DNA of 64,000 nt. It comes from Dipteris shenzhenensis (taxonomy: Eukaryota). The stretch lies in NCBI GenBank assembly GCA_047967505.1, contig CM106538.1. One strand, written 5' to 3'. The first letter of the stretch is position 1. The number at the start of each line of letters is the position of its first letter. Under the pieces are notes generated by a model. It was given only the letters and a program-made list of their open reading frames with translations, was not told where the DNA came from and ran no database searches. Below, in pieces: positions 25,501-61,025 of the stretch. The position numbers and the translations under genes were made by a program.

Positions 25501-26789
25501 TCGCCTCGTTCATGTGGAATATTTTTTAGAGTGTTTTTAAAGAATTGACTGAAGATCTCCTCGAAATGTGTAGGCCCTGTAAATGTTATTTGATCCAGAA
25601 AACTATTTTTGGTTGGACAAAACATTATTGGGCGCAAGACCACATTACTTGCCACAGGTTTCTTGCCATCTCTCAAAGCCTCGTATATTTGCATTGCATA
25701 GGATATATCAAGGCTTCGGCTATTAGTAAACAGAGCTGCAGCTTCCACATCTTTGGCATTCACAAACCACGTCCTTTGACCCCAGATATATCCCACATCA
25801 TCATCTGTAACTGCTTCATTAAGACGCAGATTAAGATTTTTAATTGATGTGAGTTCATCTTGATCATCTTCAGCCTCGGATTCTGAGTCTTCTTCATCTT
25901 TCTCTTTTTTTGACTGTTTTTCATCCACATTATCTTTCTCTACAGTGGGACGATGTCTTTTCTTACTGCTTGGAACCGTGGCTCTTGCAGTACTAGCCTT
26001 TTGCATTTCACGTCGTGGCTTGCTAGCAAGAGCTTCTAGCATAACTGCAGTGGATCGACCTTGATCTTCTTCAATTTTTGCTAATTCCCGTGCACTCAAG
26101 GCTTGTTTTTCATCATCCTTAGTTACATTCACCATTTCTGGCTCTACAAGTTTGCGCTCATCTTCTACAGGTTTGTGACAGTGTGCCTGTTCTTCTTGTC
26201 CCTGCATTGAAGTCTGAGCTTTTTGATCTCCTTCATGTGATGATTCTTGCATATGGAGAGCATATTCTGCATCCTGAAAGTATTCAAGCATTATCTTTGC
26301 ATGCATCATTTTTGCCACCACACTAGGAAATTGCTCCCAAGTATATGAAAGAGTCTCCAATGCCCTTTGCAACTCTGGAAACTTTGATGGTTGAGGAGGA
26401 GGCATCACAAAGGTCTTTGCGTCTCTCCTTGACACAATAAAATGCATACCGCCAACTTCAGGATCTGAACTCTTTGTTAAAATATCCACAAATGTGTCTT
26501 TTCGCTGAATTATTATGCCTACTACAAGGCTTGAAGTCATATCTTTTTTGAAGAAAGTAGCATCCCATGGATCTTCAACACCATTGAACTCCCTTTTTGA
26601 CATAAGTAGAAAGAGTCTCTTTTCCTTTTGATGAAGAAACCAGGCTCTTCTACCCATGTGATATCGAGTCCACCTACCAAAGCCATTGGGGCTATATTCC
26701 TTTCCTTTGAAATTCAAAGTGACATCAGAAACCCATTCTCTGATCTCAGAGTCATCTAGCATAGCCATCACATTAGCTGATTGCTCCAT
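19569..26789 (-). CDS. Spliced ~1,933-aa protein: ParB/Srx-like (DGQH) domain + degenerate methyltransferase-like domain + 3x Ulp1/C48 cysteine protease
   Basis: Inferred GT-AG coding exons: 26789-23580, 23487-23240, 23103-22933, 22848-22759, 22668-22386, 21926-21697, 21613-21443, 21357-21268, 21176-20712, 20584-20414, 20331-20242, 20151-19569. They total 5,802 nt and join in frame with no stop. Each protease repeat has 171-nt and 90-nt exons with HWSL...NS and Q...CGWRV motifs. Confidence 0.8.
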
Positions 26790-27923
26790 AATCCTACAAG
26801 AAAAGATAATGAAGAATTTAGATACATACAAGTAAAGTACAATATACAACCCTTGATACAATAAATGTGGAAAATAGCCCAAAAGGCTTTACAAGGCTTC
26901 ATATGGCAATAAATGTGGGAAATAGCCTAAAAGGCTTTACAAGGCTTAAATATTTGTACAAATGTAAAAGAATTAGCCAATAAAGCTTTACAAGTAATAT
27001 AAAATGTCGTCTAGTGATAAAGCTTCAATCTTCGTGAAGATTCATGTAATCTATCCATCCATTGATATCTGAGCACTGATACCCAACTGTTGCAATCTAT
27101 CCACTAAAAACTGTTCCACTGATATCCACTTATGCAGCCCACATGATATCCGCTTATGCATCCCACTGATACTCGTTAATTAGTGAATGGTCGGGATGGT
27201 CGGGTTTATTACAAGGCGCTTCATATGACAATAAATGTAAAAAATAGCATAAAAGGCTTTACAAGGATTTTTATGACAATAAATGAGCTTAAATATTTAT
27301 ACAAATGCAATAAAAATAACCAATAATCATCAAGCTCCAATATGTCCCATGACATGTAATCTGTCCACTGATATATGCAATCTGTCCACTGATATCTGCT
27401 CATGCAATCTGTCCACTGATATTTGCTCATGCAATCTGCCCACTGATAAACTTCTTGGTAAATGGTAAAAGGTCTTATTTAATAGCATGTTATGAGTGTT
27501 AAACCGCATGTGAGCGAAGGGACTGACAACGAATAGGAACTAGTTAGAAAAATTTGAGCATGGCTTCGATTGGCAACTTGGAGAATTGTCTCTCCTCTAA
27601 GGCAATCTAATCTATGCTAAACTATGCTAAACCAACCGTCGAAGCGAAGAAAAGCAATAAATAATTTCTTTTTCTGTGTTCATTTTAATGTGCTGGGGTT
27701 TAAGAGGCTTAAATATGCAAAAGAAGGGGTTGTGATGTAGAGGCTAAACCTGCATGTGATATAAATAAAGAACAAGTATCTAAAGAAAAGTTAACATTTT
27801 TCAATTTAAAAGATGAATATATATAAAAACATTATCTCACTTTCAAAATAAACCATAAATTCACTCTTTTATAATTTTTTAAAAGTATAATATAAAGTAT
27901 GTAAATATATAAAACTCTCTTTA

Positions 27924-27966: not shown

Positions 27967-28183
27967 CCTAAATCTCTTTGCAGCCATAGTCAAGACACCT
28001 CATTCTCTCTCTTAATCTCTCTCTCTCTCTCTATAACTCTTAAACCCTAAACCCTAAACCCTAAACCGGCTTCTCTCTCTTAATCTCTCTCCCTCTCTCT
28101 CCTCTCTCTTTCTTTCTCTCCCTACTCTTCTCTCTCATTTAAAAATATAATATAAAAGATGTAAATATATAAAACTCTCTTTA

Positions 28184-28920: not shown

Positions 28921-30113
28921 TCCCATTTCTCAAATTTACAAACTCGAATATAAATAAAAAACTAATTAAAATAGAACTCAAAAACTCAAATAAGAAACTA
29001 ATCCCTATTCTCCCATTTCTCAAATTTACAAACTCGAATATAAATAAAAAACTAATTAAAATAGAACTCAAAAACTCAAATAAGAAACTAATTTAAAAAG
29101 AATTGTAATGCCTTCTAAAAGACCACCCTCCTCAAAAACTTTAAGAATAAACTAATTGAAAAAGAATTATAAGTAAAGAAAAAGAATTACAATACGAATT
29201 TTAAGAAATAGAACTCAAAAACCTTAACAAGAAACTAATTGAAAAGAATTGTAAGTAAAGAAATAGAATTACAAGACGAATAAAAAAGAATGCAAGTACC
29301 TGGAAAAAGTGGAAAAAGTGAAAAAAGTAAGGCTCGGCTTATCCTTTCTCTTCCGCTCTTGGTTGCTTCAATGAAACGAGGAGAGAGTTAAAACTAGTCC
29401 ACTCCTACACATAAATTTGAATTTTCAAAAAAGAGAGGGAAATTTGAATTCATTATAAATTTGAATTCAAATTTGTGTTCAACATTCTTCTTATACGTTC
29501 CTTTTGAATTCAAATTTATGTTCAACATTCTTCTTGATACTTTCTTCAACATTCTTCTCGATTCTTGTAAGTCCTTTTCATTCTCGTAAGTCCTTTTCAT
29601 GTAAGTCCTTTTCATTCTCGTACGTCCTTTTCATTCTTCTCGTAAGTCAAATCTTATTTTTCGTTCTTGCTCGTGATAGTAAGTCAAATCCTCCTCTCCC
29701 ATCTCTCTCTCCTTCTCTCTCTCTCCTCTCTCTCCTCTCCTTCCCTCCATCCATCCCTCGACCCAATCCTCTCCTCCAACCTCCTTCCCTCCCCTCCCCT
29801 TCCTCCGCCGCCAAAACTCCTCCCTTCCCTCCGCTCTCCCTCCTTCCCCAAAATCCCTCTCCCCTCTTGCTACCCTTCCCCTCTCCCGTCGCCTAACCTC
29901 TTCCTCCCCTACCCCTTTTTCCCCCTACCCCTTTTAACCTTCCTAAATTTTCCCCACCCCCCTTGGCGACCCCCCCAACCTTTCCACCCTCTTCCCCACT
30001 CTCCCTTTGGCCCCCCCTCCCTCCTTCCTTGGCGACCCCCCCCTCCTCTCACCCAGCTCCCCCTCCGCCCTCCCTGGGGCTGGCCGCCAGCCCCCCCCTC
30101 TCCTCACTCCCTG

Positions 30114-31591
30114 GGCTGGCGGCCGCGGCCGCCAGCCCCCCCCCCTCCTCACCCAGCCCCTCCCCCTCTTCACCCTCCCCCCCTCTTCCCAACCCACCCA
30201 TCCCGCTCCCTGGCTGGCGGCCGCGGCCGCCAGCCCCCCCCCTCCTCTCACCCAGCCCCCCCCTTCTCCTTCCTCTCTCCCTAGGCTGGCGGCCGCGGCC
30301 GCCAGCCCCCCCCCCCTCCCTCTCACCCACCCGCCACCCCTCCCCCCCCTTCACCCTCCTTGGCTGGCGGCCGCGGCCGCCAGCCCCCCCCCCCTCTCCT
30401 CTCTCCCTTTCCCGCTCCCTGGCTGGCGGCCGCGGCCGCCAGCCCCCCCCCCCTCCTCTCACCCACCCCCCACCCCTCCCCACCCATCCCGCTCCCTGGC
30501 TGGCGGCCGCGGCCGCCAGCCCCCCCCCCCTCTCCTCTCTCCCTGGCTGGCGGCCGCGGCCGCCAGCCCCCCCCCCCCTCCTCTCACCCACCCCCCACCC
30601 CTCCCCACCCATCCCGCTCCCTGGCTGGCGGCCGCGGTCGCCAGCCCCCCCCCCCCCCCTCTCCTCTCTCCCAGCCCCCCCCCCCTCTCCTCTCTCCCTG
30701 GCTGGCGGCCGCGGCCGCCAGCCCCCCCCCCCCTCCTCTCACCCACCCCCCACCCCTCCCCACCCATCCCGCTCCCCTGGCTGGCGGCCGCGGCCGCCAG
30801 CCCCCCCCCCCCTCTCCTCTCTCCCCCCTCCTCTCACCCAGCCCGCCCCCCCTCTCCTCTCTCCCTGGCTGGCGGCCGCGGCCGCCAGCCCCCCCCCCCT
30901 CTCCTCTCTCCCCCCTCCTCTCACCCAGCCCCCCCTCTCCTCTCTCCCTGGGCTAGCGGCCGCGGCCGCCAGCCCCCCCCCCTCTCCTCTCTCCCAGCCC
31001 CCCCCCCCCTCTCCTCTCTCCCTGGCTGGCGGCCGCGGCCGCTTGCCCCCCCCCCCCTCCTCTCACCCACCCCCCACCCCTCCCCACCCATCCCGCTCCC
31101 TGGCTGGCGGCCGCGGCCGCCAGCCCCCCCCCCCCTCTCCTCTCTCCCAGCCCCCCCCCCCTCTCCTCTCTCCCTGGCTGGCGGCCGCGGCCGCCAGCCC
31201 CCCCCCCCCTCCTCTCACCCACCCCCCACCCCTCCCCACCCATCCCGCTCCCTGGCTGGCGGCCGCGGCCGCCAGCCCCCCCCCCCCTCTCCCTCTCTCC
31301 CCCCTCCTCTCACCCAGCCCGCCCCCCCTCTCCTCTCTCCCTGGCTGGCGGCCGCGGCCGCCAGCCCCCCCCCCCTTCTCACCCACCCCCCACCCCTCCC
31401 CCCCTCCTCTCACCCAGCCCCTCCCCCTCTTCACCCTCCCCCCCCGCTTCCCAACCCACCCCCCCCCTTCCCTGGGCTGGCGGCCGCGGCCGCCAGCCCC
31501 CCCCCCCCCTTTCGCAACCCCTCCCCCACCCCCCCTTCCCCCCCTCAGCCGCTCCCCCACCCTCCCGGGCTGGCGGCCGCGGCCGCCAGCC
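30114..31591. repeat. Array of 19 copies of the 24-bp palindrome GGCTGGCGGCCGCGGCCGCCAGCC in C-rich spacers
   Basis: Counted by eye: 16 perfect, 3 with 1-2 mismatches; period roughly 55-145 bp. Confidence 0.92.
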
Positions 31592-31994
31592 CCCCCTCTT
31601 CACCGCGCCCCCCCCCCTCCCCCTCCTCCCCCCTCCCCCCCCTCTTCACCCTCCCCCCCCTCCCCCCCTCAGCCGCGGCTCCCTCCCTCCCCCTCTCAGC
31701 CGCTCCCCCCTCCTCTCGCTGCGCCCCCCCTCCCCCTCTCAGCCGCTCCCCCCTCCTCCTCCCAGCCTCCCCTCTGCACCCACCCGCTTCCCTCCCACCC
31801 GCCGCGCCAGCCTCCCCTCCCACCCTCACACCCACCTCCCTCTTCGCCCCTTCTTCCCCTCCCTTCCTCCTCCCTCCCGTCCCACCCTCTTCCTCCCCTC
31901 CCTTCCTCCTCCCTCCCCTCCCCTGAACCTTTCTCTCTCTAATTTCTCTCTCTTTAAATTTTAAAAAAGAAACTAGAAAAAAAAGTTTGCAAGT

Positions 31995-32230
31995 ACCTGG
32001 AAACAGTTTGTAAGTTTGCTCTTTCTTGCTTTCTTGCTCTTCCTTCCTTGCTCTCTTGATCGTCCTTGCTTTCTTGCTTGAATGAAATGAGGGGAGAAAG
32101 AATGAATGAAGGAAGACTATATATAAGAAAAATTAGGTTTTCCTCCTCCTCTCCTATTGGCTTTCCATTCCTCCCCTCTCTCCTATTGGCTTTTCATTTA
32201 TCTCCTCTCCCATTGGCTCCCATTACTCCC
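31995..32230 (-). promoter_or_regulatory. Putative promoter and non-coding first exon of the ParB-Ulp1 gene
   Basis: On -: several CCAAT boxes (32155-32220), AAAACCTAA, TATATATA (~32118-32126), then a CCAG|GTAC donor at ~31998. The same arrangement occurs at 55540-55735 in the host copy. Confidence 0.55.
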
Positions 32231-41130: not shown

Positions 41131-41258
41131 AACTTCTCCCACTAATAAATTAAGTACTAATTAAAAATTATAATAAATAAGTAGATTATTAAAAAGAGAC
41201 TAATATTTATGTAATTGTTGCCACTGCAGCTTGCTTGCGAAGGACTCTCACAAAGGAG

Positions 41259-44200
41259 ATGGCTATAGATTTTGTTCCAGGGATGGATGTGATTTTATGT
41301 AGCAAAAGAGAAGTAGTTGCATTTGCTACAATCCATGATAGTGATCCCAATTCTCTTTGCCACTTTCGAAGACTTGGCGAAGATAAGGTAGCAGTTACTG
41401 TATCAAAGATTCTTAGCGCACATGTTGAGCTAAAGTATAAATGTGGAGATATGGAAACACTTGGAGATGTTATGCCCTACAATACATCCAACAAATCATT
41501 TATAGCATGGGACAAAGATGAGACTTATGCAACAGACATTATCAAGAATACAAAGTGCACCACCTTGGATTTTACTATAGGGGACATTCTACAAATGAGA
41601 TCATTTGCAAATAAGATTGTAGCAGAAGGTGAAGTATTGGGATTTGAACAAGTGGAGCAATGGTCATTTGCGCAGATGAGGATTCTAAAAGTCACTGATG
41701 ATGGTATGGTTGATAACATAACATCCTTATGTGATCCCTACTATGAGGTAGGCAAGAATATGAGATGGAGCATGCAATTTTTAAACATGAGAAAGAGGCA
41801 CGTGGTTTTCAATGATAAAGACAACGCATACTACAATATCAAAGGACCTAAAAAGCGTGCCCATGTGCCAGGCTCTATCACTTCAAATGTGGATGATTTC
41901 AATATACTCAATTATAGAAGTGACATCTTATCTGGAGTGGATGAGTTCATTGGTTCCAAGAAACAAAATGATTTTAGAAGCGAAGCCTTATCTGGGGTGG
42001 ATGAATTCTTGCACAGTGAGAAGGGCAAAGGTTTCAATAGCGATGTCTTGTCAAGTGTGGATGAGTTCATGCATATTAACAAACCTGGTGTCAATCAAGG
42101 TTGTGGATTTGTGAAATCCATGCAAGATGTCCCAATGAGTGATGTTCTCTCAGGAGTGGAAGAGTTTCAAGGTTCTCAATACTCTCGTAGAATATTGAAT
42201 TCATTGAATGGTCCTAAGAGTATGTTAAAAATGAGGATGAGATCAACAGAGGATTATTCAGTATTTAACTTTGATTGTGATATGAACAAGGATGCAACGA
42301 CCAATCATGGATGCTTGGTTACAAACAAATGTGAGGAGAAGAAGTGCATAAATACAGATAACAATGTGTACGAGGAACGAAAACGGTCATACATATGCAT
42401 GAAGAGAAAGAGAATCCAGGCAGATCCACAAAAGCAACCAAAGAGGAAGAGAGTAATGAAGGAGGAGAACATGTTAAATGCATTGGGATATCTATGTTGC
42501 AAGCGAAGATGTATGCGCTTCATTGATCTTGCAGACATCAGGGAATGTAGAGGACACGTGTGGCAAAGAAGGGGAAGCGAAAGAAATGAATACCTTCTCA
42601 CAAGTCTCTCTTGCTTTCTTCAGAATGGCAATAAAAGGCTAAGTTCAAGACAAAAGGTAAAACCTCTCGTAAATGGAAAAAGGATTTGCAATAAGGCATA
42701 TCGCAATATTACTGGATTATCCCATGGTACATATTGGGATTTAGTCACCAAGGCAAAGGGCGGCAACAAATTTAGCATTCACGGTAATAGAGGAAGGTCC
42801 AAATCAAGAATCTCAACTGTCAGGGCAGCAGCAATTTTACAAGACTTCATACATGAAAATGCTTTGCCTCAACCCCATATATCTACCAAACTCCCTAACG
42901 GTGACGCGATCACTGAAATGCACCTTCCAATGGGCTTGACAAAGCTCGAAGTATTTGACTCTATTGCAGAAAAGCAAAGGCAAAGAGGGGATGCTGTAGC
43001 TTCTTCTCATACTTTGTATACTCTTTGGAAGAAGAACTTTGGATATGTTAAAATCCCAAGGAGGCAAAAAATGTCAAAGTGCAATGTCTGTGATGATTTA
43101 AAGCGAGCGATTGAGAGTGCAACATGTCCAAATCAAAGGGAATTATACAAAAAAAACTGAAAATCTCATCATGACCTTATTCGACATTCCAGACAAAAAT
43201 ATGCATTTTGGAAGGAGCAAGCTATTTCGCATCCTGATGACTACATGTGTCTTATTGTAGATGGCATGGATCAGAATACAACAACATTGCCTCGTTTTGT
43301 TGCCACTCCACCTAAATTACAAGGAAAGCACTTTCTAAAGACACATCTATGTGTAGTGTTAGTGCATGGAATTAAGTTCTTTGCAGATATATGGATTGAT
43401 TCCTTGCATCTACATGATAGCAATCAAGTTGTAACATCTATTATGAAGGCAATTCGCAATGTACATGCAGAAAAAGGTCGCCTGCCACCGACTTTGAGAA
43501 TACAAGCTGATAATTGCTGGCGAGAAAATAAGAATGTACTTATGTTTGCCTTCTGCTCCATGCTAGTTGCTCATCGAATCTTCAATGAGGTCGAATGTGG
43601 ATTTTTGTATGTTGGGCATACACATGAGGATATCGATCAAGTTTTTAGCACAGTCTCAACGGAGCTTAAATGCAAGGATGTGGAGACAATAGATGACTTG
43701 GTAAGAAGATGTGGCAGGCAAGTTGGTGGTCGTAAGGAAAGTACAGTATGTGAGAGGCTCGAAAGAATGTATGATTGGAAGAGCTTCATTCTACCTTTCA
43801 TACAAACGGGTGGTGATGCATTGACAGGTCATACCAATCCACACTACTTTCGTTTTTTTTTTAAAGATGAAAAACCCGTAATGCAATGGCAACAGTATTC
43901 TCATGATACAAAATGGGAACCTGAAGAACCTTACAGTCTCTTAACTTCAATTCCCAGCAAGGAAAGGTATCCAACATGGGCTCCTATACAAGAATTTAAT
44001 GAGAGGTCTAATTGTGAAATAGATGGATTAAAAGCATTTATTACATACAAAGAGGAAATGCTCCAGAGATATCCTGATTCGAAGCCTGCTTGGAGAGAAC
44101 ACACTACCACTGTAATTAACAAGACACGAAATTTAATAAAGGACCTTGAGAGAATGCGAGGCTCAAAGGATGTCAAGGAAGAATGCAATATGTTTTGGCC

Positions 44201-44729
44201 AAATGTTCATAACGATTTGCGCCCAGCTCCAGTCTTTGAAAATGATTTTGTATCATTACTCCCACGTCCATATTGTGGACCGAAGAAGAGAGAGTTTATG
44301 CCACAAGTAGATATAGAGGTTGATTGTTTTGTTGTGGTTCGGCCATCGGATGATGAATATGAGAATGTGAAGTTTTGGGTTGCAAAAGTAGTTGATGTGC
44401 AAAGAGATGACCAAGGGAGAGCTACAACATTTACAGCGGTATGGTATGAGCCAAAGGGCAGGAAGGAGAATATGGATAACAACACATTATATACTAATTG
44501 TATAATGAAGGAGTGGGTCCCAAATGATGAAGCAGTCTCTCAAGTTTCGACAGAGACAATCATAGTGTCTTGGCATTCAAGGGCAAAGAAATCAAAGAAG
44601 CACATGGGATATGAGGTAGAAGGAAAAATAAAAATACCACAGCAAACTATTTTGCATATACACGAATTTTTAAGGATGCTCGCCATGGAGGAAGTAGAAG
44701 GAGATAGCGCAAATGAAGAATGTCGATGA
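41259..44729 (+). pseudogene. Sola1-like DDD transposase (~1,155 codons) with a single in-frame stop at 43158-43160
   Basis: ORFs 41235-43160 and 43245-44729 are in the same frame. Motifs: CCKRRC, ICNKAY, KCNVC, IVDGMDQ, QADNCWRENKN, FLYVGHTHEDIDQ. Splice acceptor at 41229 with branch-like gactaat, then ATG at 41259. Confidence 0.85.
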
Positions 44730-46461: not shown

Positions 46462-49400
46462 TTCTCATAGTATGGCATAAAGACAAGTAGTATGCCATCC
46501 AAGTCTAAAGGTTGTAGAATTGAACAAACATCATCTACTATCTTCTTGGTATCACTAAGTACAGCTGAAAGAAGAGAATCGAGCATACAAACGCGATTCT
46601 GTACTAATCTAGGAAAATGAGATATAACCGTACTACAGCAATAAATAAACAAATGTTAGAAGCAGATTGAATCAAATGATTGAAGTATCAAGTCAAGAGA
46701 TGTTCATATCAAACCTGAGGATGGCCATCATGACTTTGTCATTAGCCTCTTTCAAAGGGTCGGAGAGGATTATAACTTCCTCGCTACCAAAAGCCAAAAC
46801 ACGAGGTTGCTTGCTAATGATGACCTTAACCTCAGAAGAGCTCCCCATTTCGTCCAATACAGCGGTTACATCAGGACAACTTATGGGCGTAGCAACCAAT
46901 GTTTCCTCTGGATGCTCCACCACGTTATCAATAAATGCCTTAATGATAGATGACATAAATGCATATAGATGCAAGTCTGTATATGTGGACAATGAGGTTT
47001 CACCGCCTCTCAAATCAAAAATTTGAGCAAGGAGCAAGAAGCAGTTATATCCAACTCTCCACCCACAACTGTGGTCATCATTCTGCTTCGCTGCAGGGCA
47101 TGTTACATACTCTATTTGATCTTCCAAGTCACCCTCCATTTGCATAAGTGCATCTGTAGCACTTACCAACTTTCGAGCAGATCTACACATCAAAATAGAA
47201 AACATAAATGAATGTGCGCATTGCATAGGATGCATCTCATTGACATAATTATGACACAAGTAGGTTATACTTACTCTGACACACTGCCATGGATAGATGC
47301 TATTGAATTGACAAAGAAGCATTGCTTGGCTAAGATGTCCACAATTACCAAGCTCCAATGCAAGCTGCATTATCAATTAAGAATAATTATTATTTAATAT
47401 AATCCTCCACAATGTAAGAGATAAGCTAGGTAGGGATTGATACTCACTCCTCGTGATATGCGGTAAAGATAACTCGCGCCGCAGTCAAATCAATAGGTTG
47501 CAACCACCTAAAAATGTCATCTATGGTCTTCTCCTTATTGCTAAGTACACTAGAAACAAGAGGATCGACCATATATGCACATCTTTGTATATATAGCGGA
47601 AGCTGTTGTAAAACCATACTGCAATAAAAAGAAAAGAATATTAGTTCATTTGATCCAATGGAAATACAAAAGCATAAAGTCAGTAAAAAGTTTGTGTCAA
47701 ACCTGAGGATGGCTATTATAACCTTGTCATTGACCTCTTTCTTGAAGTTTATGAGGATTGAAATATCCTCTTCATCGAATATAAAAGTAAGAGGTTGTTC
47801 TTGAACTTGAAACCTAACTTGAAATGACTTCTCCATTTGCTGCAATGTATGATTATTTTCTAGAGTCATCCGATGGATAGCCAGAGCAGCTTTGCTTTCT
47901 TGAGATGAGCTTTCATGATTCTCTGCTCCAACTATGTCCTCCTCATCCTCCTCCTCTCCCTTCTCCTATAAAAGGATAAAATAATTATGAGATTCAAAAT
48001 TTTAAATTAATTATAAATTTAAAAAGACCTTTAAATGAATAAAGAAAATTAAACATAAGTCTTCATACCTCTACATATCTTCGTGGTCTTTTTATGTAAC
48101 CTTCAGAGGCAAGGTCAGTGTCATATCCATCTTCCTCTGCTTCCTTGCTATCGCTGGTATCCTCACTATTATATCCAGAGCTTTGATCATTTTCATCATC
48201 TTTCTTGCTCTCATCGTACATGATCTGCTCTATGTCATCCTCTTCATGTGAGATCGGACCTTTCTTATCAAACTTTATTGTGAGAGAAGCCACGGTATCA
48301 AGGTATTCCAAGCAAGTAGGGCTCTCAATAATATTTACATTGTGTCCTTTTCTGATAAGAGCTTCAAACAGATGTCCCATTCGGCACAATGTGACTTCCC
48401 ATCCAGACGGTAGCAAAAATTCCATCATACTAATTAAAAGATCAGCACTTTTTGCTGGCCTTTCATAGTGATTTGCATTGCGATGGAGGGGACTTGGAGC
48501 TTCATGCTCTTCCAGCAGTAGTTGCAATCTCTTTGCATTCCCTCTTATATTGTTTTGTAAGGAGTGATCATTATAAGGGCTCTTCATGCACAAGAAAAAG
48601 GTTTCTAGACTCGGTATCTTGAGACCGCATTCTCTCTTGTCCCTTTTTCTTGAGTATATCCCATTGTAAATCTTGAGCTCATTGCCATATTGTTTTTCTA
48701 GGGTAGCAGACATTTGTTCCTTGTCATCTTTATCAGCAAATATGACTATATTACATTGTCCCACTCTACCAATGGTGGTATGTAATATTCTGTCAAGGAG
48801 TGGATGGATGTCATCCGCTGATATTTCATAGACAAAGAAAAGCTGAGGTCTCTCCCAAGCAGTGTCGTCGGACAAAAAATCACTCAATGAAACTCCCTTG
48901 CACTCAACACTCTTTCCAGACTCTGAAATGATTTCATGTATGAAATAAAAGCCCTTGTTCAAAGTCTTTTCTTTTCTGAGAGTGTGGTTATTGATGACTT
49001 TTTGTGCATATGCATACACATTTTCCGGAATGTCACTTCTCATAGAGGGAGTAATTTCAGATCCATCATCTTCTACCTTCACCCATTTATGCGCCCAAGC
49101 CTTCTATTTAGTTGACGGTAAAGCTGATGCCATCTGCCTCACAATGTTATGATCAATTTTACATTGGCTGATTGGAATATTTTTTTCTCCCAATAAATAT
49201 TCAATTGCACTCTTTACTGCATCACGCTTGACCTGTTGGATGATGTTATCTTCCATGCAATGATCTTTATCCTTTTTGCCAAAAAACCATTCTTTTGACA
49301 TTAATTTCTCTGCAGCAAGACTTGCGTATTTATCTGGTAGGTTTCTTAAAGGCCTCCACATCCGAGCTGTCATCTCTTTTTTCTCAATCTTCTTTTCCTT

Positions 49401-51455
49401 CTCTTTAATCAATGATGGAGCCTCATATGTAACATCTCCTTTCTCACATGCAAGACACACGTCTTTGATCTGATGAAAAACTTCATCACTACGGAAAAGT
49501 ATGCTTGTGTAGTCTTGATATCTATCCCTTACTGTCTTGAAGCTTGTAATCACCTCAGCTCTTTCCTGCTTTCCCCTTGGTACAATGGCACTCAAGCATG
49601 TGTAGAAGTCAACAAGATTATCCGCTTCCACTTTAGTTGCAGTTCTTTTGAGAGTGGTCAAAGGAGAATTAAAAGTTTTCCATATGGTCCTAGCTTTGAG
49701 CAACATCTCTGAAGTGGAGGTGATTTTTCGTAGTGCATAAATGTCATGATTAAGTCTTTCCGACTCAATCAAATATTTCTTCTCGTTCTTGAAGATACAG
49801 ATGCATGCAGAATAGTAGTGAAATTGAGGCACACTCGCGAAAGTTTGATAAGTAATTTCTCCTTTCTTGTATGCATCTCTAGAGCGCTCATTACAAGCAT
49901 AGGCATAGTGCTGACCATCTATTGCCTCAAATGTACAATGAGCTAAGAAATTTCTCTTGGCATCCCTTATATGTCGTTCTGGATCATTCACTGAACTCTG
50001 TCCTTCTTGAAGTGAGGGAACTTGTTTTCCGAGGAACTTAGTGAATTGCATCTCAAAATCTATAGGCTGAGAGAAATTGATGGATTGACTATAATCTCCC
50101 ATGACTGGCCAAAATGTTCTTGGACGGAGTACCAAATTAGAAACAACTGGTTTTTTTCCATCAATCAAAGCCTGAAAAATCTTTTCAGCATAGGCTGTAT
50201 CTAAGGTCCTGCTGTTGGTGAAGACACTTGCTTTGACCACTGTTGAAGCATGTATAACTTGAGTCTTCTGGCCCCATATATATCCTGGATCCTCATCTGT
50301 CACAGCCTCATTCAAGCAAAGATTTAGGTTCTTCATTGATAACATTTCTGCTTCTAGATCTGACTCCATTTCAAGACCCTCCGCATTCTCTTCATGTTCT
50401 TCCTCTTCTCTTCTTTGCCCTTTCTTTGTATATGAACGACCTCTTTTTCCAGTTATAGGACTTGGAATTGTAGCTCATGAAGTACTTGCCTTTTGCATTT
50501 GACGTCGAGGTTTATTTTTTAGAGGCTCAATGTGAACTGCTTTAGATCGCCCTACTTCTTCTTCTATTGCGTCAACTTCAGGTATACTTAAGGGCTTCAC
50601 TTGTTTTGTTATTCCATCAACTTCATGAGTTACACCATCTAAGTGAGTAATACCATGAACAAGAGATGTGTGTGAATGTCCTGTCTTATCTGATGCATGT
50701 CGTGTCTCACTCAATTCAATTTCTGTCTGAGATGCATGTGCATGTCCGGTCTCCACCAATTCAATTCCTGTCTCAGATGTAGATCCCTTGTAAGCATCCA
50801 CGTGTACAAGACCCTCATCCATTGCTACAATGTGTTCTGTCTCATCCACTCCACTTCCTCTCTCATTTGTATTACCATGAACCAAATCTACATGGCGTGT
50901 CTCATCACTTCCTTTCTCATGTGTGGATTCTTGCACCTTAGGTCCCTCCAATGAAGTTGAACCTTGTTGGATGACACCCTGAAAGTATTCAAGGATAATC
51001 TTTGACTGCATTTTTCTTGCTTCCTCAATGGGAAATTCCTCCCACACATGTTGAAGGATCTCCAATGCAGGAACCAATTCAAGAAATCTAGGTGCTTTTG
51101 GCAGCGGCATCACAAAGTGTATTGCATCTTTCTTAGAAAGAAGAAACGATCTGTTGCTCATTCTTGACTTTGTGTAAATCATCATTGTAGTGCTGTCTTT
51201 TTCAATTTTTATTCCTACTAAAGTGCCCCCTTGAATCAAATTGCTCTTGGAGAAAGATACATTTGATGCGCACTCATCTTTCTCCAACTCTCTCTTTGTC
51301 ATCACTAGAATGAGATTTCCTTTACTTAAGACCAAGAACCATGCTTTCTTTGTTGTGTCAACAACTGTCCAGTTTGTGAAGTCCTTTGGGGCATAAATTC
51401 TTCCATTGTATTTCAGTGTCATACCATTGACAAATGCTGTAGCCTCAAGATCCAT
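46462..51455 (-). pseudogene. Host-element ParB/Srx-like + methyltransferase-like + Ulp1 gene (continues at 17178-16441)
   Basis: Large exon 51455-48069 in one frame with two premature stops (50475, 49104) and motif FEAIDGQHYAYAC. Exons 47965-47703, 47618-47448 (171 nt), 47364-47275 (90 nt), 47182-46715, 46632-46462 (171 nt). Colinear with 19569-26789. Confidence 0.85.
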
Positions 51456-53909
51456 CCTGTATTCAAGCACAACACAAATTTTAAGTACTTTGACAAACTA
51501 CAATTACTTTGAAAAATCAAAAGTACAATGAGTCCCATTAATACACCTCAAGTTTGTATTCTTCCCAATCATATAAGTATCAATTTCATGCTTTGGGAAT
51601 AGCCTAAAAGGCTTTACAAGGCTTAGAGCATAAATGCTTTGGGAATAGCCTAAAAGTCTTTACAAGGCTTAGAGCATAAATGCTTTGGGAATAGCCTAAA
51701 AGGCTTTACAAGGCTTAGAGCATAAATGTGAAAAAAAATAAGGATTTACAATGATCTCTGAATACAAATTTGAAGTCTGTCATATATAAGTACAAAATGC
51801 TCTGTCAACTCCTGCAACTAATATAAGTGTAAAATGCTCTGTCAACTTCCACAACTGTAATCTGTCATGTCCACTGATACAACTTTCAATCATCTTGAAA
51901 GTTTAAAAACCTTAATCGTTGCTTAAATGGTAGGGTTGTTGTGACTGTGAAACCGAATGTGAACGAATGGACTGACTCCGATTAGGAACTAGTCGGGAAA
52001 TTTTGAGCATGGCTTTGATTGGTTTTTTTGGAGTTCTCTCCTCTAAGGACAAACTAATCTATGCTAATCTAGACTACACCAACCGTCGAAGCGAAGAAAA
52101 GCAAGAAATAATTTCTTTTCCATTGTTCTTTTTAATATCCTTAGGTTGCGAATTAAAAGGAAAAAATAATCTTTCCATTATTCTTTTTAATACACTAAGG
52201 TTGTGAGTTTAAAAAAGATAAAATTTATATTTTATCTTTTTTAAACTCACACCCCTTTCTCTCTCTCTCTCCCCCCCTTCTCTCTCGCTGCCGCCCCCAT
52301 CCTCCCACCCCACCTTCCCCATTCTCACTCCCACGCCCACGTCCATTCTTTCACCTTCCCCATTCCCACTCCCTCTCCCACTCCCATCCTCCCACCCCTT
52401 TCTCTCTCTCTCCCCCTCCATTCTCTCTCGCTGCCGTGGCAGTGGCCCCCCCCTTCTCTCTCTCTCTCTTCTCCTTCTCATTTTAAAAAAGATAAAATTT
52501 ATATTTTCAAAAACTAATTTACTTACAACTCATAAGAATTGAACATTCACATTAATAAGAAGTTAAAATCTTAATAAATTTGAATTTATATAATAAAAAC
52601 TATAAAGTAGTTTAACTTAAAGTTTATGAAAAAATAATGTAAAATAAAGAAAACAAGACTTAAAATTAAAAATTTAATATTTACCTAGAAGAATATATTA
52701 ATTCTCCCTAAAAAGAAATAAATTAAAGTAATAATAACGAATATTCTCCCTAAAAAGAAATAAATTAAAGTAATAATAACGAATGTAAGTTAAACTACTT
52801 TTAAAATTTTAATTTAAAATGTAATAAAATTAAAATTATACTCTTTATATTCCAAAACAAAATGCATTATAGTCTAAATTAAACTAGTAAATTAAAAATG
52901 AAAGTGAAACTCATTTTAAATTCAAAAACAAAGAAAAATTTAAAATTCAAGTTTCTACAAGTTTTGCTTTTAGCATACATTTGTCTTTTCACATCCACGC
53001 GTTTGTCTTTTGAAACACAAGGTTGTCTTTTATCACAATTTTCACATCCACGCGTTTGTCTTTTGAAACACAAGGTTGTCTTTTATCACAATTTTCAAGT
53101 TTTCACACGTTTGTCTTTTCAAACACAAGGATTCATAGTTTAAAAAAAGGCGGGAAATTTTGAAATTCTAGTTTCCACACGTTTCTCTTTTCAAACACCA
53201 AGGTTTATAGTTTTGTTTATTTAAGTTTCGACTAAATCACACACCAATCTCCTCTAATATGCCTCATTGATCATAGCTCCCAAATTCTTCCATCAAAACA
53301 TCTCTCCTTTATCTCTTCTTGATCGTCGCCCACTCATTTTTTCTCCTCATTGGTAAGATTTTTTATCTCGATCGTACTTTCTCTTGTGCCCTTCCTCTCT
53401 AAATTTTCATCAAACACCAAGGTTTATAGTTTTGTTTGTTTAAGTTTAGACTAAATCACATACCAATCTCCTCTCATATGCCTCATTGATCGTAGCTTCT
53501 TCATCTTGTCTCGATCGTCGCCCACTCATTTCTCCTCTTCATTGGTAAGATTTTCTATCTCGATCTCTTCATCTTGTCTCGATCGTCGCCCACTCATTTC
53601 TCCTCTTCATTGGTAAGATTTTCTATCTCGATCGTACTTTCTTGTGTCCTCCCTCTCTAAATTTTCATCTCTCTCACTCTTCTCTCTCTCTCTTTCCTCT
53701 CCGCTCTAGTCTACGTTTCCTCTCATCTTAGTCTACTCTCTCCCCTCCTCTTCATTTCTCCTCTCTCTCTCTCTCTCCCTTTCTCCTCACCTTTTTCCTC
53801 TCTCTCACTTGCGCTCCCCACTCTCTCTCTCACTTGCCGCGATCTCCCCCCCTCCCCTCTCTCTCTCTCTCCTCCCCCTCTCTCTCTCTCTCTCTCCACC
53901 CCTCCCTCT

Positions 53910-55450
53910 CTTTCGCTGCCGCAGCAGCGGCCCCTCCCCTCCTCTCTCTCTCTCCCTCCCCCTCTCTCTCGCTCTCGCATCTCCCCCCTACTCTCTCTCC
54001 CCCCCCTCCTCTCTCCCTGCCGCGGTAGCGGCCCCCCCTCTCTCTTCCCTCTCCCCACCCCTTCCCTCTCCCCCTCTCCCCCTCTCTCTCTCCCTCCCCT
54101 CTCTCTCGCTACCCCCCCTTCTCTCTCTCCCCCCCCTCCCTCTCTCGTTGCCGCGGCAGCGGCCGCGGCCCCCCCCCTTCTCTCTCTCTCCCCCTCCCCT
54201 CTCTCTCGCTCCCTCCGCCCCCTCCCCGCTTCCCTCTCCCCCCCCTACCCCTCTCTCGCTGCCGTGGCAGTGGCCGCGGCCGCCCCCCTTCTCTCTCTCT
54301 CCCCCTTCCCTCTCTCTCGCTGCCCCCGGCCCCTCCCCCCTTCCCTCTCCCCCCCCCTCCCCCTCTCTCGCTGCCGCGGCAGCGGCCGCGGCCCCCCCCC
54401 CTTCCCTCTCCCCCCTCTCTTGCTCCCCCCTCCCTCTCTCTCCCCCCTTCCCTCTCCCCCCCCCTCCCCCTCTCTCGCTGCCGCGGCAGCGGCCGCAGCC
54501 CCCCCTTTCTCTCTCTCCTCCCCTCCCTTTCCCCCCCCCCCTTCTCTCTCCCCTCCCCTCCTTCTCTCGCTGCCGTTGCCGTGACAGCGGCCCCCCCTCT
54601 CTCTCTCTTCCCCCCCCTTCCCTCTCGCTGTCCCCTCTCTCCCCCCTTCCCTCTCCCCCCCTCCCCCTCTCTCGCTGCCGCTGCCGCGGCAGCAGCCCCC
54701 TCCCTCCCCTCTCCCCCCTCCCCCTCTCTCGCTGCCGCGGCAGCGGCAGCGGCCCCCTCCCCTCCCTCTCCCTCCTCCCTCTCACCGCCCCCCTCCCCTC
54801 CCTCTCCCCCCTCCCTCTCACCGCCCCCCCTTCTCTCTCCCCCCCCCCTTGCCCCCGCCCCCCCCCTTCCCTCTCCCCCCCCTCCCCCTCTCTCGCTGTC
54901 GCTGCCGCGGCCCCCTCCCCTCCCTCTTCCCCCCCCCTCCCCCCTCCCCCTCTCTCGTTGCCGCTGCCGCGGCAGCGACTCCCTCCCCTCCCTCTCCCCC
55001 CTCCCTCTCACCGCCCCCCCTCCCTCTCTCGCCGCGGCCCCCATCCCTCCCTCTCCCCTCTCCCTCTCACCGCCCCCCCTTCCCTCTCCCCCCCCTCCCC
55101 CTCTCTCGCTGCCGCGGCAGCGGCAGCGGCCCCCTCCCCTCCCTCTCCCCCCTCGCCTCCCCTCCCTCTTCCCCCTCTCTATCCCTGCCCCTCCCTCCCT
55201 CTCTCGCCGCCCCCCCTCCCTCTCCCCTCCCCTCTCCCTCCCCTCCCTCCCCCCCTCTGCACTGCCGCGGCAGCGGCCTCCCCCTCTCCTCTCTCTCTCC
55301 CCCCCCTCGCTGCTTCTCCCCTCTCTCCCCTCTCTTTTCCCCCTCCCCCTTCTCTCCCCCCTCCCTTTCTCTCCCCTCTCTTTCCTCCCCCTTCTCTCGT
55401 CTCTCTCCCTCTCTCTTTCTTTCTCTCTTTTGCTGCCGAGGCAGCAAGAC
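53910..55450. repeat. Array of ~13 palindromes CGCTGCCGCGGCAGCG (and variants) in CT-rich spacers
   Basis: Perfect copies at ~54369, 54476, 54730, 54962, 55107; the others carry transitions. Same position as the 30114-31591 array. Confidence 0.85.
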
Positions 55451-55539
55451 TCTCTCTCTTCTTTTCTCTCTCTAAAAATCTTTCCTTCACTTTTCTCTCT
55501 CTATAATAAAATTTCAAAGAATACAAATTTTAAAAACAG

Positions 55540-55735
55540 TACCTGGAAAAAAGTTGAAATCGATGCTTGTGCTTGCTTTTGCTCTGCCTCCTCTTTTTGC
55601 TTCTCCTCTTGCTCTTCCTTGTTGAAATGAGAGAAACAATGAGAGAAGGAGAGTATATATAAGAAAAACTAGGGTTTTAAGTGCTTCTCTCTCATTGGTC
55701 CTTCTATAACATTATCTCCTCTCCCATTGGCCTCT
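55540..55735 (-). promoter_or_regulatory. Putative promoter and first exon of the host ParB-Ulp1 gene
   Basis: On -: CCAAT boxes, telo-box-like AAACCCTAG, TATATATA, CCAG|GTAC donor; homologous to 31995-32230. Confidence 0.55.
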
Positions 55736-55764
55736 CTATTAGATTATCTTCTCTCTCTCTCCCA

Positions 55765-56665
55765 CCCACTCCCATCCTCCCACCCCATTCCCACTCCCAC
55801 TCCCACCCCCATCCTCCCACCCCACCTCCCCCATTCTCACTCCCACGCCCACGCCCATTCTTTCACCTTCCCCATTTCCACTCCCTCTCCCACTCCCATC
55901 CTCCCACCCCACCCCTCCCACTCCCACCCTCACTCCACCCCCACCTCCCCCATTCCCACTCCCACTCCCACTCCCATTCTCCCACCCACTCACATCCTCC
56001 CACCTACACCTCTCACTCCCACTCCCATCCTCCCACCCCCACCCCTCCCCCCCCATTCCCACTCCCACTCCCATTCTCCCACCCTTATCCTCCCACCTCA
56101 CCCCTCCCACTCCCATCCTCCCACTCCCTCTCCCACTCCCACTCCCACTCCCATTTTCCCACCCCCCCACCTCCCCCATTCCCACTCCCACTCCCATTTT
56201 CCCACCCCCCCCACCTCCCCCACTCCCACTCCCTCCCCCATCCTCCCACCCCACCCCTCCCACTTCCACCCCCACCTCCCCCATTCCCACTCCCATCCTC
56301 CCACCTCACCCCTCCCACTTCCACCCCCACCTCCCCCATTCCCACTCCCTCTCCCACTCCCATCCTCCCACTCCCACTCCCCACCCCACCCCTCCCACTC
56401 CCACTCCCATCCTCCCATCCTCCCACCCTCACCCCACCCCCACCTCCCCCATTCCCACTCCCTCTCCCACTCCCACTCCCATTCTCCCACCCCCACCTCC
56501 CCCATTCCCACTCCCTCTCCCACTCCCACTCCCATCCTCCAACCCCCACCCCCACCGCCCCCATTCCCACTCCCTCTCCCACTCTCCCTTTCTCCCACTA
56601 CCACCCTCCCACACTCCCTTTCTCCACTTTCCCACTCTCCCTTTCTCCCACTACCACCCTCCCAA
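55765..56665. repeat. Degenerate (CCCACT/CCCATC)n hexamer tract
   Basis: Directly visible. Confidence 0.9.
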
Positions 56666-57688: not shown

Positions 57689-57826
57689 GTTATTGGTTAG
57701 TGTCTAATTAAATTTTCAAACACGTTCTGGATTTTTAAATCATTACTAAAGTAGATTATTGAGAAGAGACTAATGTTCTTTATAATGGTTGTTACAGCTT
57801 GTTTGCAGAGGAAACTCACAAAGGAG

Positions 57827-60800
57827 ATGGCTACAAAATTTATTCCGGGGATGGAGGTGATTTTATGTTGCAAAAGAGAAGTAGTTGCATTTGCTACAAT
57901 CCATGAAAGTGATCCAAATTCTATTTGTCACTTTAGAAGACTTGGCGAAGATAAGGTAGCGGTTATCGTATCAAGGATTCTTAGTGCACATGTTGAGCTA
58001 AAGCATAAGTGTGGGGATATGGAAATACTTGGAGATGTTATGCCCTATAATACTTCCAACAAAGCATTTATTGCATGGGACAGAGATGAGACTTATCCAG
58101 CACATGTCATCAGGAATACAAAGTGCATATCTTTGGATTTTAGAGTGGGAGATATTTTACAAATGTTATCATTTACAAATAAGTATGTAGCAGAAGGTCA
58201 AGTCTTGGGATTTGAACAAGTTGAACACTGGACATTTGCGCAGATGAGAATTCAAAAAGTTACTGATGATGGTATGGATGATAACTCAATGTCATTGGAT
58301 GGTCCCTATTATGAGGTAGGTAAGGATTTGAGATGGAGCATGCAATTTTTAAAGATTGGAAAGACTCGGCATGTGGTTTTTAATGACAAACATAATGTAT
58401 ACTACAACATCAAAGAATTGAAAGAATATGCCAATGTACCAAGCTCTATTCCTTCAGAGATGGATGATTCCAATGCACTCAACTATAGCACTGACGTCTT
58501 ATCAGAAGTCGATGAGTTCATTGGTACCGAGAAAGAAAAATATTTCACAAGTGATGCCTTATCCGGGGGGATGAGTTCATGCACATTGAGAACTTGGGCA
58601 AAGATGTGAAAAGTGTTATATCTTCAAGCATGGATGGCTTCATGGATACTGATAAAGTTCTTGGAGTCAAAGCAGGTAACTATGGAATTATGGAAATCAT
58701 GCACGATAGTATAATGAGTGATGTTCTCTCTGGAGTAGAGGAGTTTCAAGACTATGGAGTTATGAAATCCATAGAAAGTGCATCAATGAGCGATGTTCTC
58801 TCAGGAATAGATGAGTTTGAAGATCATTCTGGACACTCTATCACCACTGACTATGGAGTTATGAAATCCATAGAAAGTGCATCAATGAGTGATGTTCTCT
58901 CAGGAATAGATGAGTTTGAAGATCATTCGGGACACTCTAATGCCATTGTGACAAGTGGTTCTACGATTGTATCAAAAGTAGGGATGAGATCAACAAAGGA
59001 CTATTCGGTGTTTGACTTTGATTGTGAACTTGTAAATGTTACAAATGGTTTGACAAATGTATCAAAAGAAAGGATGACATCAACAAAGGAATATTCAGTA
59101 TTTGACTATCAGAGTGATAAGATCAAGGATGCAACATCTCATGAAAACAACGTGACAAATAAATCTTACAAGGAGAACTACACAAATCCAAATAAGAATG
59201 AACAGAAGGTCCCAAAACGGACATACAGATGCATGAAAAGACAACGAGTGCAGGCAGATCCAGAAAAGCAACCAAAGAGAATAAGAGTAATGAATGAAGA
59301 TGTTATGCTAAAAGCAATGCGATCTACATGCTGTAAGCATACATGTATGCGATCCATTAACTTACATGACATCAAGGGTTGTAGAGAACATGTCTGGCAA
59401 AGGAAAGGAAGCAGAAGAAATGAATACCTACTCACGAGATTGTCTTGCTTTCTTGTAAATGATAAGAGAAGGCAAAGTTCAGGACATCAAATAAGGCCTC
59501 TTATAAATGGAAAAAGTATATGCAATAATGCATATCGCATTATTACAGGATTATCACATGGCACATATTGGAATTTGGCTAATAAAGCAAAGTATGGAGT
59601 TAAATTTAACATTCATGGAAACATAGGAAGGCCCAAAACAAGAGCCTCAACGGTTGCGGCAACAGCAATTTTGAAAGATTACATTTATGAAAATGCTTTA
59701 CCGCAACCCCACCTATCAGAAATGCATCTTTCGATAGGTTTGACCAAAAAAGAAGTATTTAACTCTATTGGAGAAACACAGAGGCAAAGAGGGCATGCAC
59801 CGGCATCTTTTCATACTTTGTATACTCTTTGGAAAAAAAGCTTTGGACATGTTAAAATCCCAAAGAGGCAAAAAATGTCAAAGTGCAACGACTGTGATGA
59901 TCTAAAGCGAGCACTTGAGAGTGCAACATCTCCAGAACAAAAAGAAGCTTACAAAAGAAAGAGAGAATTTCATCATGGACTTGTTCGACATTCTAGAATA
60001 AAATATACATTTTGGAAGGAGCAAGCTATTTCTCACCCAAATGAGTACATGTGCATTATTTAGATGGTATGGATCAAAATACAACAACATTACCTCGATT
60101 CGTTAACACTCCACCTAAGCTACAAGGCAAATACTTTTTAAAGACACATCTATGTGGAGTGTTAGTGCACGGATTTAAGTTTTTTGCAGACATATGGATT
60201 GATTCCTTGCATCTACACGATAGCAATCAAGTTGTAACATCCGTTATGAAGGCAATTCACAATGTACATGCAGAAAAAGGTCGCCTACCAGCAACTTTGA
60301 GAATACAAGCAGACAATTGCGGACGAGAGAATAAGAATGTACTCTTCTTTGCATTTTGCTCAATGCTAATCGCTCATAGAATCTTCAATGAGATTGAAGT
60401 TGGGTTTTTGTTGGTTGGGCACACACATGAGGATATCGATCAGGTATTTAGCATAGTTTCAAGAGAACTAAAACACAAGGACATGGAGACAATGGATGAC
60501 TTGATAAGAAAATGCGGGAGGCAAGTTGGTGGCCGTAAGGAAGGAACAATATGCTCAATGGTTGAGAGGATGTATGATTGGAAGAGCTTTATTCTACCTT
60601 TCATACAAAAAGGTGGTGATGCCCTGATTGGTCATAGCGCTCCACACTATTTTCGATTTTTCTTAAAGGATGAAAAACCAGTGATGCAATGGCAACACTA
60701 TTCTCTTGATACAAAATGGGAACCTGAAGAACCTTACTCTCTCTTAACTTCAATCCCGAGCAAAGAAATGCATCCAACATGGGCTCCTATAAAAGAATTC

Positions 60801-61025
60801 AGAGAGAAATCCAAAGGTGAAATAGAAGGCTTAAAAGCTTTTATTGCATACAAAGAGGAAATGCTCCGGAGATTTCCTGATTGGAAGCCCTCTTGGAAGG
60901 AACACACTACTGTTGTAATTAGCAAGACCTACCAATTGATAAAGGACCTTGCAAAAATGTGAGAAGATGATATTAAGGCAGAACGGCCTTTATTTTGGCC
61001 AAATGTTGCTAATGACTTGCGTCCT
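57827..61025 (+). pseudogene. Host-element Sola1-like transposase, disrupted and 3'-truncated
   Basis: Colinear with 41259-44229. Frameshifts at ~58570 and ~60060, stop at 60960; DGMDQ, DNCGRENKN and VGHTHEDIDQ retained; splice acceptor at 57797. Confidence 0.88.

Follow-up and report, generated by a model that had tools for sequence, protein, structure and literature searches.

Why should two diverged copies of one genetic element carry, at the same position, arrays of different palindromes built around the same core? The question arises in a stretch of 64,000 nucleotides from Dipteris shenzhenensis (contig CM106538.1, assembly GCA_047967505.1), hereafter the window, where two copies, A and B, of an element encoding a protein with a DUF7869 domain lie side by side. 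An initial annotation of the array in copy B had noted that the arms of its palindrome differ from those of the sister array while remaining symmetric, and had read this as selection for dyad symmetry and as co-evolution of site and protein. The explanation that we favor, with a confidence that stops just short of an even chance, is that both arrays consist of dyad-symmetric, iteron-like sites for a dimeric DNA-binding protein encoded by the element itself, with the binding, the binder and the effect all being putative.

The 16-bp palindrome annotated in array B is indeed present. The array consensus is CGCTGCCGCGGCAGCG, perfect at five positions (54369, 54476, 54730, 54962 and 55107), with about nine further copies decayed and a second core, GCCGCGGCC, often following. 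Allowing up to two mismatches yields 15 matches against 0.00 expected from shuffles, a count that includes three slippage registers of neighboring sites and one match outside the main array (52429). The perfect 16-mer thus occupies 5 of the 14 CCGCGG-centered sites, and perfect 14-bp and 12-bp versions of the palindrome lie at 54680 and 55262. In array A the palindrome is GGCTGGCGGCCGCGGCCGCCAGCC, perfect over 24-26 bp at 16 of 19 sites, and this 24-mer recurs in three or more types of unit that differ in left flank, at spacings of 47-132 bp. All 32 occurrences of the core GCCGCGGC in the window fall within the two arrays (19 in A and 13 in B, against 0.09 expected), bearing out the claim of a different palindrome with the same core. 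Both motifs have the outer GCTG...CAGC and the central CCGCGG in common, the extra sequence in A being GCGG/CCGC on each side. Each copy therefore carries a family-specific short motif in multiple clustered sites (19 in A, about 14 in B). With an arm length of at least 6, perfect palindromes number 47 in the window, and 25 of these fall in arrays A and B; none of the many other tandem-repeat families of the window has a conserved palindrome of comparable size.

The palindromes also stand out by composition. The block of array B spans 1.5 kb with strong strand asymmetry (GC 0.67, GC skew -0.72). Array spacers are about 92-94% pyrimidine (about 94% in B), with G at just 2-4.5%, and the palindromes form G+C-balanced islands within them, containing 94 of the 107 CpGs of array A and 49 of the 77 of array B. 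B-type units also form a mini-array 1.5 kb leftward of array B, and its one decayed palindrome (52429-52444) exactly matches the decayed copy at 54257.

The annotation also placed the two arrays at the same position, and the layout of the copies agrees. Self-comparison and tblastn show that A (~20.0-45.4 kb) and B (~46.4-61.0 kb) are collinear and in the same orientation, each consisting of an ~1100-codon gene on the minus strand, a 210-bp block, CT-rich DNA, the array, a TATA/CCAAT block, repeats and the plus-strand DUF7869 gene. Both arrays lie between the 210-bp non-coding block, 82% identical between copies, and the TATA/CCAAT block. Most intergenic sequence does not align between A and B. 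For both genes, the ratio of nonsynonymous to synonymous divergence (dN/dS) is 0.17-0.34, indicating purifying selection; A and B are thus separate lineages under such selection, not dead duplicates. Given purifying selection at synonymous divergences (dS) of 0.44-2.2, the non-coding sequence still shared is probably constrained; unconstrained non-coding sequence would be expected to have ceased aligning over such distances. The 210-bp block, which carries a minus-strand CCAAT and has no Rfam match, exceeds the neighboring coding sequence (66% nucleotide identity) in conservation, and could be a proximal promoter or untranslated exon of the minus-strand gene. Synonymous divergence itself differs sharply between the plus-strand gene (0.44-0.56) and the minus-strand gene (about 2.2, saturated); the gap suggests mosaic copies, module exchange, gene conversion between neighbors or independent histories.

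Both arrays also have the form of minisatellites, which does not in itself exclude a function. Tandem Repeats Finder (TRF) resolves them into plain head-to-tail units evolving in concert, with 10.9 units of 78 bp in array A, overlaid by a 476-bp higher-order repeat (1.8 copies at 97%), and the two periods listed for array B in Table 1. The internal homogenization that had been attributed to both arrays accordingly fits array A, with its 16 perfect sites and near-identical 476-bp repeat; it fits array B weakly. By our reading of the match table, 7 of 10 changes from the B consensus are CpG to TpG or CpA, and array B looks as though it is decaying at CpGs, with the signature of methylated-CpG decay, rather than being homogenized. 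These features allow for a neutral explanation, which we regard as unlikely: a minisatellite with a self-complementary GC-triplet or hexamer unit, in which slippage, unequal exchange and hairpin-templated correction keep the symmetry and spread a variant with no function involved. Hexamer slippage is visible in array B (GCTGCC twice at 54673-54684; GGCAGC twice at 54738-54751 and at 55115-55128) and the center of the array A motif is (GGCCGC)x2, which, like the head-to-tail form, the CpG decay of B, the one-armed variants of A and the lack of covariation between mirrored positions described below, is what neutral turnover would produce. If neutral, the arrays would be a clear case of self-complementary minisatellites holding symmetry through mutation alone. 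Such turnover leaves unexplained that the core shared by A and B has survived at a dS of at least 0.44.

Distant relatives also bear on this point. The Pfam domain DUF7869, whose function is unknown, is nevertheless common: a scan confirmed at least 526 metagenome relatives, and our comparison set comprised 80 metagenome loci at 25-41% identity, none of them close to the window copies. At least eight non-redundant loci among the 80 have a repeated palindrome of their own, and in three or four lineages the array lies 0.2-4 kb upstream of the gene. The near-identical loci L068, L069 and L075 carry T[AG]GTGGCCAC[CT]A 18 times, most of these copies forming an array of 1.1 kb, with a spacing of 24 or 50 bp, that lies 3-4 kb upstream of the domain, and L080 has dyads of about 28 bp with the same core in an array at 7036-7782, 2.1-2.8 kb upstream. 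In L004, seven sites of TTTGGCCATATGGCCAAA type at 646-1572, about -1330 to -390 relative to the ATG, precede the start codon (about 1975) of a gene that is uninterrupted and almost full-length. Unique spacers set these sites apart, and a short conserved tail accompanies each of them; decayed copies, judged by eye, extend the series to 529-1740 (about -1450 to -230). Further cases are L005, with seven dyads of 19-27 bp; L019, with six copies of TCAC[TC]CGCG-S-CGCG[AG]GTGA, and its sister L028, with two; L018, with five sites centered on TTCCGGCGATCGCCGGAA; L022, with four palindromes of 30-48 bp, and its sister L071, with one having the same arms; and L046, with two dyads of 20 bp.

Mirror repeats served as a control, their chance frequency being the same as that of palindromes and higher on skewed strands. 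A repeated palindromic core was found in 11 of 77 sources (9 without two microsatellite-like cases; 176 sites), and a repeated mirror-repeat core in 0 of 77 (53 sites). Palindromes also make up 10 of 1260 repeated 10-mers against 2.5 expected, but this four-fold excess is a poor statistic because each repeat yields many overlapping words, and the mirror-repeat control was used in its place. A relaxed quasi-palindrome scan added only AT-rich noise. Palindromes are thus supported as a recurrent, lineage-specific feature of DUF7869-encoding elements. A neutral minisatellite accounts neither for unrelated palindromes recurring near DUF7869 genes in several deep clades nor for the lack of repeated mirror repeats; moreover, the AT-containing cores CCATATGG, GTGGCCAC and GCTTAAGC are not slippage-prone and occur among unique, non-tandem spacers, as in L004. 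Separately, very long perfect or near-perfect palindromes, resembling foldback mini-elements, surround the lineage dyad at L018 (1586-1737, 152 bp) and L074 (4967-5032, 66 bp).

Palindrome type follows protein clade. In a rapidly built maximum-likelihood tree with 82 rows of the DUF7869 domain, with motif groups defined after inspection, all five groups with at least two rows form one side of a tree branch, and the nine groups require eight changes, the minimum possible, against a mean of 12.4 for shuffled labels, none of the 200 shuffles being as low. The part of the annotation's inference that finds support is the existence of lineage-specific dyads tracking the protein clade. Since the groups were drawn post hoc and the DNA is shared by descent, the tree result reflects inheritance with turnover and not co-evolution as such.

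If an element-encoded protein reads the palindromes, the DUF7869 protein is the one to consider. The protein of copy A comprises an N-terminal region, a Cys-rich, winged-helix-like module, a DDE (Asp-Asp-Glu) core and a C-terminal BAH-like barrel, and the DUF7869 domain is matched at E 1e-52 in both copies. Across 25 aligned sequences, conservation is complete or at least 90% at D33/D36 (DGMDQ), D116 (QADN) and E155/D156/D158 (HTHEDID); the acidic triad of DDE enzymes is present among these positions, from which any three catalytic residues would be a putative choice based on sequence. An AlphaFold2 model has a predicted local distance difference test score (pLDDT) of 76.9, and in an exhaustive structural search the VIA-align ranks 1-19 against it are all chains of DDE transposases or integrases. 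The best structural matches are Rous sarcoma virus integrase (Z 8.8, root-mean-square deviation 3.1, 140 residues aligned), Mos1 (Z 8.8, 160 aligned), IstA (Z 8.6) and Metnase (Z 8.4), which lie barely above Z 8, the bar for trusting a match with this tool; Foldseek returns weak matches (E 4e-3 or worse) with the same DDE fold. As modeled, then, the DUF7869 domain is an RNase H-like DDE transposase core. A word-indexed search retrieved 59 relatives of the DUF7869 part, including uncharacterized sea-urchin, oyster and mussel proteins; the nearest relatives are P0002 (57% identity) and, encoded on contigs of 280-670 kb, P0007, P0008, P0010, P0016 and P0018. No match to this part was found among PDB sequences with a single sequence or a profile, no relative in a viral contig collection, and no paper naming DUF7869 in the literature collection covered by a full-text search.

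Just upstream of the core, the putative DNA-binding module has conserved cysteines, including a CxxC, and models at pLDDT 74, with weak matches to cullin WHB, RFX5, CENP-B, the TnsB DNA-binding domain and ArgR. A word-based search with the N-terminal module alone (residues ~436-655 in A) found no homologue among longer proteins. At the other end, Foldseek matches the C-terminal barrel (44300-44700) to the BAH domains of EBS (5z8n_B) and polybromo (1w4s) with probability 1.00 and E of about 0.02 over 91 columns. A BAH-like chromatin reader on a transposase, as this predicted fold has it, would suggest targeted integration; our literature search returned no paper joining DDE transposase, BAH domain and transposon. 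Conservation of the protein is lowest in the linker (41900-42200 and 58700-59000; 48% identity, dN/dS 0.54), which contains three to four copies of a SDVLSGVDEF-like peptide repeat.

The presence of arrays at the same spot in A and B, together with different palindromes in distant relatives, argues that they are probably docking sites of the element's own enzyme. In the mechanism that we propose, a large DNA element of eukaryotes, encoding a DUF7869-type DDE transposase, would have the arrays in its 5′ control region, and each palindrome would be read by a dimeric element-encoded protein, the likeliest candidate being the winged-helix-like Cys-rich module that precedes the catalytic core. Many sites in a row might recruit or multimerize the protein on its own element, in the manner of the subterminal repeats of other cut-and-paste transposons, and the array may in addition serve auto-regulation of the CCAAT/TATA promoter beside it. 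Through unequal exchange and hexamer slippage the arrays would evolve in concert, so that each subfamily would come to fix its own palindrome variant.

Several observations weigh against this mechanism. Regarding the binder, the winged-helix matches of the module are weak (Z 5-7, below the bar of Z 8), and the module is not accelerated between A and B, with 68-75% amino acid identity and a dN/dS of 0.25-0.27, like the rest of the protein. Regarding the sites, all three variants in array A (30632, 30960 and 31033) are changed on one arm only, with no compensatory change, and in array A, L068 and L004 the frequency of complementary mirrored positions does not exceed that expected under independence; the one mirrored pair that does, in array B (12 of 14 against 7.5), can be traced to the presence of two types of site. 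GCN hexamers make up the motifs and slip visibly in array B, and self-complementary repeats may regain symmetry through hairpin-templated correction; either process could keep the symmetry without selection. Given this hexamer build and the shared GCTG...CAGC and CCGCGG, a symmetric change between A and B need not represent two selected substitutions. Regarding the relatives, the motif groups were set after seeing the data and clade is confounded with host genome; 63 of the 82 tree rows, most of them short contigs, have no motif; just 6 of the 13 non-redundant relatives with at least 3 kb of upstream sequence show clear repeated palindromes; and L048, L049 and L053, inside the GTGGCCAC clade, are without any such site. 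Finally, the element ends were not found, so that a subterminal location would be putative, and the window arrays lie between two divergent genes.

The search for ends bears on a further explanation, which we rate as very improbable. The palindromes might be relics of abutted ends, that is, head-to-head junctions of terminal inverted repeats from a gene-less derivative or a circle junction, amplified later in tandem. The long palindromes of L018 and L022 (30-150 bp), dispersed through the locus in the manner of foldback mini-elements, are what such junctions might look like, but the copies examined yielded no terminal inverted repeats: the 64-kb window has no inverted repeats of at least 150 nucleotides, and none that convinces was seen around L080. 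The A and B dyads, at 16-24 bp, are in addition short for paired ends, and no half-site lies at a recognizable element boundary. Palindrome sites in the window occur between the two genes only, and those of L068 and L080 flank the gene on both sides.

The sequence next to the arrays raises two more alternatives. A conserved TATA, TATATATAAGAAAAA, at 32118 in A and 55654 in B, accompanied by NF-Y-like CCAAT boxes, lies 200-530 bp from the array ends. The arrays could accordingly be bound by a transcription factor or chromatin reader of the host, or be targeted by CpG methylation and silencing, acting as an enhancer, silencer or CpG-island-like module of the promoter. We consider this improbable. 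It fits the proximity of the promoter-like block, the location of nearly all regional CpGs in palindromes and the decay of B, which is of the CpG-deamination type expected under methylation. CCGCGG would also fit a CGCG box, and the A arms contain GCCGCC, both being presumptive matches to factors. Sites for a host factor should be alike across the elements of one host and not lineage-private, whereas the dyads of the relatives are quite different. A telo-box-like sequence, TAGGGTTT, follows immediately after the TATA in B (55668-55680), with TTAGGTTTT in A, and a short interstitial plant-type telomere repeat (TAAACCC x3.9) lies in a spacer of A at 28041-28067; we presume these to be plant-style promoter motifs.

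Read on the minus strand, the same block shows CCAAT, TATA, about 100 nucleotides and a conserved TTCCAG|GTACT aimed into the array, and an acceptor-like AG stands immediately before the ATG of both minus-gene copies. With a donor-like site pointing into the array and an acceptor-like AG before the minus-strand ATG, the arrays may lie within the first intron or leader of the minus-strand gene, with direction and splicing predicted from these signals. The palindromes might then work as nucleic-acid structures, either hairpins, cruciforms or G-quadruplex/i-motif forms within a minus-strand transcript (first intron or 5′ leader), with a role in RNA processing, small RNA production or as a hotspot of recombination or replication. 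Stable DNA hairpins (-14.3 and -12.8 kcal/mol; z -3.5 and -2.5) and the C-runs of the spacers, which are G-runs on the minus strand, are in keeping with this idea. To this reading we nevertheless give little credence, since the L004 and L068 arrays lie upstream of a plus-sense gene and are not rich in G/C runs, the stems, at 8-12 bp, are shorter than small-RNA biogenesis would call for, and the fold of the L068 dyad is weak (-4.0 kcal/mol, z -2.0). The donor module (putative exon plus TTCCAG|GTACT) recurs in part at 29290-29390, to the left of array A, which is thus bracketed by two module copies; B has one.

Returning to sites read by an element-encoded protein, known systems offer partial parallels. 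On that reading, the counterparts of the palindrome arrays would be the subterminal binding repeats of hAT, CACTA and other transposons and, as regards form, iteron or family-of-repeats arrays. Subterminal transposase-binding repeats include the 12-bp motifs of TnpA in En/Spm and AAACGG in Ac/Ds. In Hermes, BED domains bind GTGGC repeats (PMC10368747). As in these three systems, the elements studied here have many family-specific short motifs over about 1 kb, 5′ of the transposase gene; unlike in them, the motifs are not short direct or inverted half-sites but perfect 16-24 bp dyads forming a regular minisatellite with pyrimidine spacers between two divergent genes. Arrays read by a dimeric element protein are exemplified by the family of repeats of Epstein-Barr virus oriP with EBNA1, papillomavirus E2 sites and plasmid iterons. 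With these our arrays share some 20 tandem units having one palindromic site each and an element-private motif, but the protein here is a DDE enzyme, not an origin binder.

Other comparisons concern the transposase and the repeats themselves. The Zator superfamily resembles the prokaryotic ISAzo13 transposases (PF07592) and makes 3-bp target duplications (PMC10045372). A candidate link to DUF7869 comes from PF07592, found on 11% of the members of one DUF7869 protein-atlas cluster (via homologue P0031), and from a common DDE RNase H-like core fold; a PF07592 match at E of at most 1 was obtained for 0 of 25 DUF7869 proteins scanned. The passages on Zator that were consulted describe no palindrome arrays, nor are any known to us elsewhere. 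The downstream control region of maize Spm is a GC-rich, CpG-rich repeat block beside the promoter and a methylation target, not described as an array of perfect palindromes; its position next to the element promoter and its composition are similar to those of our arrays. Transposable elements may also contain internal minisatellites or satellites, such as the arrays of foldback elements and satellites derived from miniature inverted-repeat transposable elements. Head-to-tail units, concerted evolution and higher-order repeats are common to those and to the arrays reported here, and element A has a 182-bp satellite as well. To our knowledge, such internal arrays have not been described as keeping a dyad core at one position between diverged subfamilies.

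A wider reading combines these elements, and as a joint claim we find it doubtful, if worth stating. DUF7869 would mark a widespread, essentially undescribed family of eukaryotic DDE transposons, with a winged-helix-like, DDE and BAH-like transposase and private iteron-like arrays upstream that co-diversify with the protein and serve as a multimerization platform or landing pad. More boldly, the array could act like a family of repeats, tethering an extrachromosomal intermediate. Were the wider reading true, A and B would form a natural specificity-switch pair, with the same core and different arms. Our analysis offers a concrete mechanism for DUF7869, comprising a DDE core, lineage-private palindrome arrays and sister subfamilies that differ only in dyad arms, and the A and B proteins with their sites constitute a ready pair for studying the evolution of transposase site specificity.

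Table 1. Coordinates of the features of element copies A and B in the window
Feature	Position	Strand	Remarks
DUF7869 gene, copy A	41193..44729	+	1177 codons, one in-frame TGA at 43158
DUF7869 gene, copy B	57755..61025	+	three frames (frameshifted); conserved parts 72-80% identical to A in amino acids
Orphan gene, copy A	23574..26888	-	open frame, 1104 codons
Orphan gene, copy B	48063..51497	-	two internal in-frame stops; 51% amino acid identity to A
Conserved non-coding block	51937..52147 (B), 27488-27700 (A)	.	~210 bp, 82% identity
Array A	30113..31592	.	19 sites of the 24-bp palindrome GGCTGGCGGCCGCGGCCGCCAGCC; modal spacing ~78 bp
Array B	53910..55450	.	~14 CCGCGG-centered sites, pyrimidine-rich spacers; TRF periods 111, 226
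Mini-array of B-type units	52252..52479	.	1.5 kb left of array B
Promoter-like block A	31992..32218	-	CCAAT 32207; TATA 32118-32132; donor-like site 31992-32002
Promoter-like block B	55538..55732	-	CCAAT 55689, 55721; TATA 55654-55668; donor-like TTCCAG|GTACT 55538-55548

The 1104-residue protein of the minus strand matches no Pfam or NCBIfam family at E of at most 1 and no PDB sequence, and has no homologue in the 80 related DUF7869 loci; among 1.8 billion representatives it has 14 weak relatives, all partial, the best at E 7e-17. Its 'IDGQHW' stretch is reminiscent of the DGQHR motifs of ParB/DndB, and this candidate was dropped because nothing supported the resemblance. Just upstream of the minus-strand gene, both copies have three to five repeats of a conserved motif, AATAGCCTAAAAGGCTTTACAAGGCTT (26880-27290 and 51588-51728), which holds the dyad AGCCT AAA AGGCT, with a 5-bp stem and a 3-nucleotide loop. 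Beyond the minus-strand genes, tblastx shows conservation in all frames and no clear additional gene, and Rfam at gathering thresholds and a tRNA scan gave no match in the whole window.

Between the promoter-like block and the DUF7869 gene, element A carries the 182-bp satellite at 32918-41094 (45 units, about 77% match, with higher-order structure), and the corresponding place in element B is occupied by other repeats, of CCCACTCCCAC type at 55750-56660 and as a tandem array at 56742-57688. A 1.2-kb repeat with 85% identity, at 10441-11618 and 61119-62292, starts where the similarity of B to A stops and is probably another repeat family truncating the 3′ part of B. A self-complementary stretch of 408 bp lies at 12453-12860.

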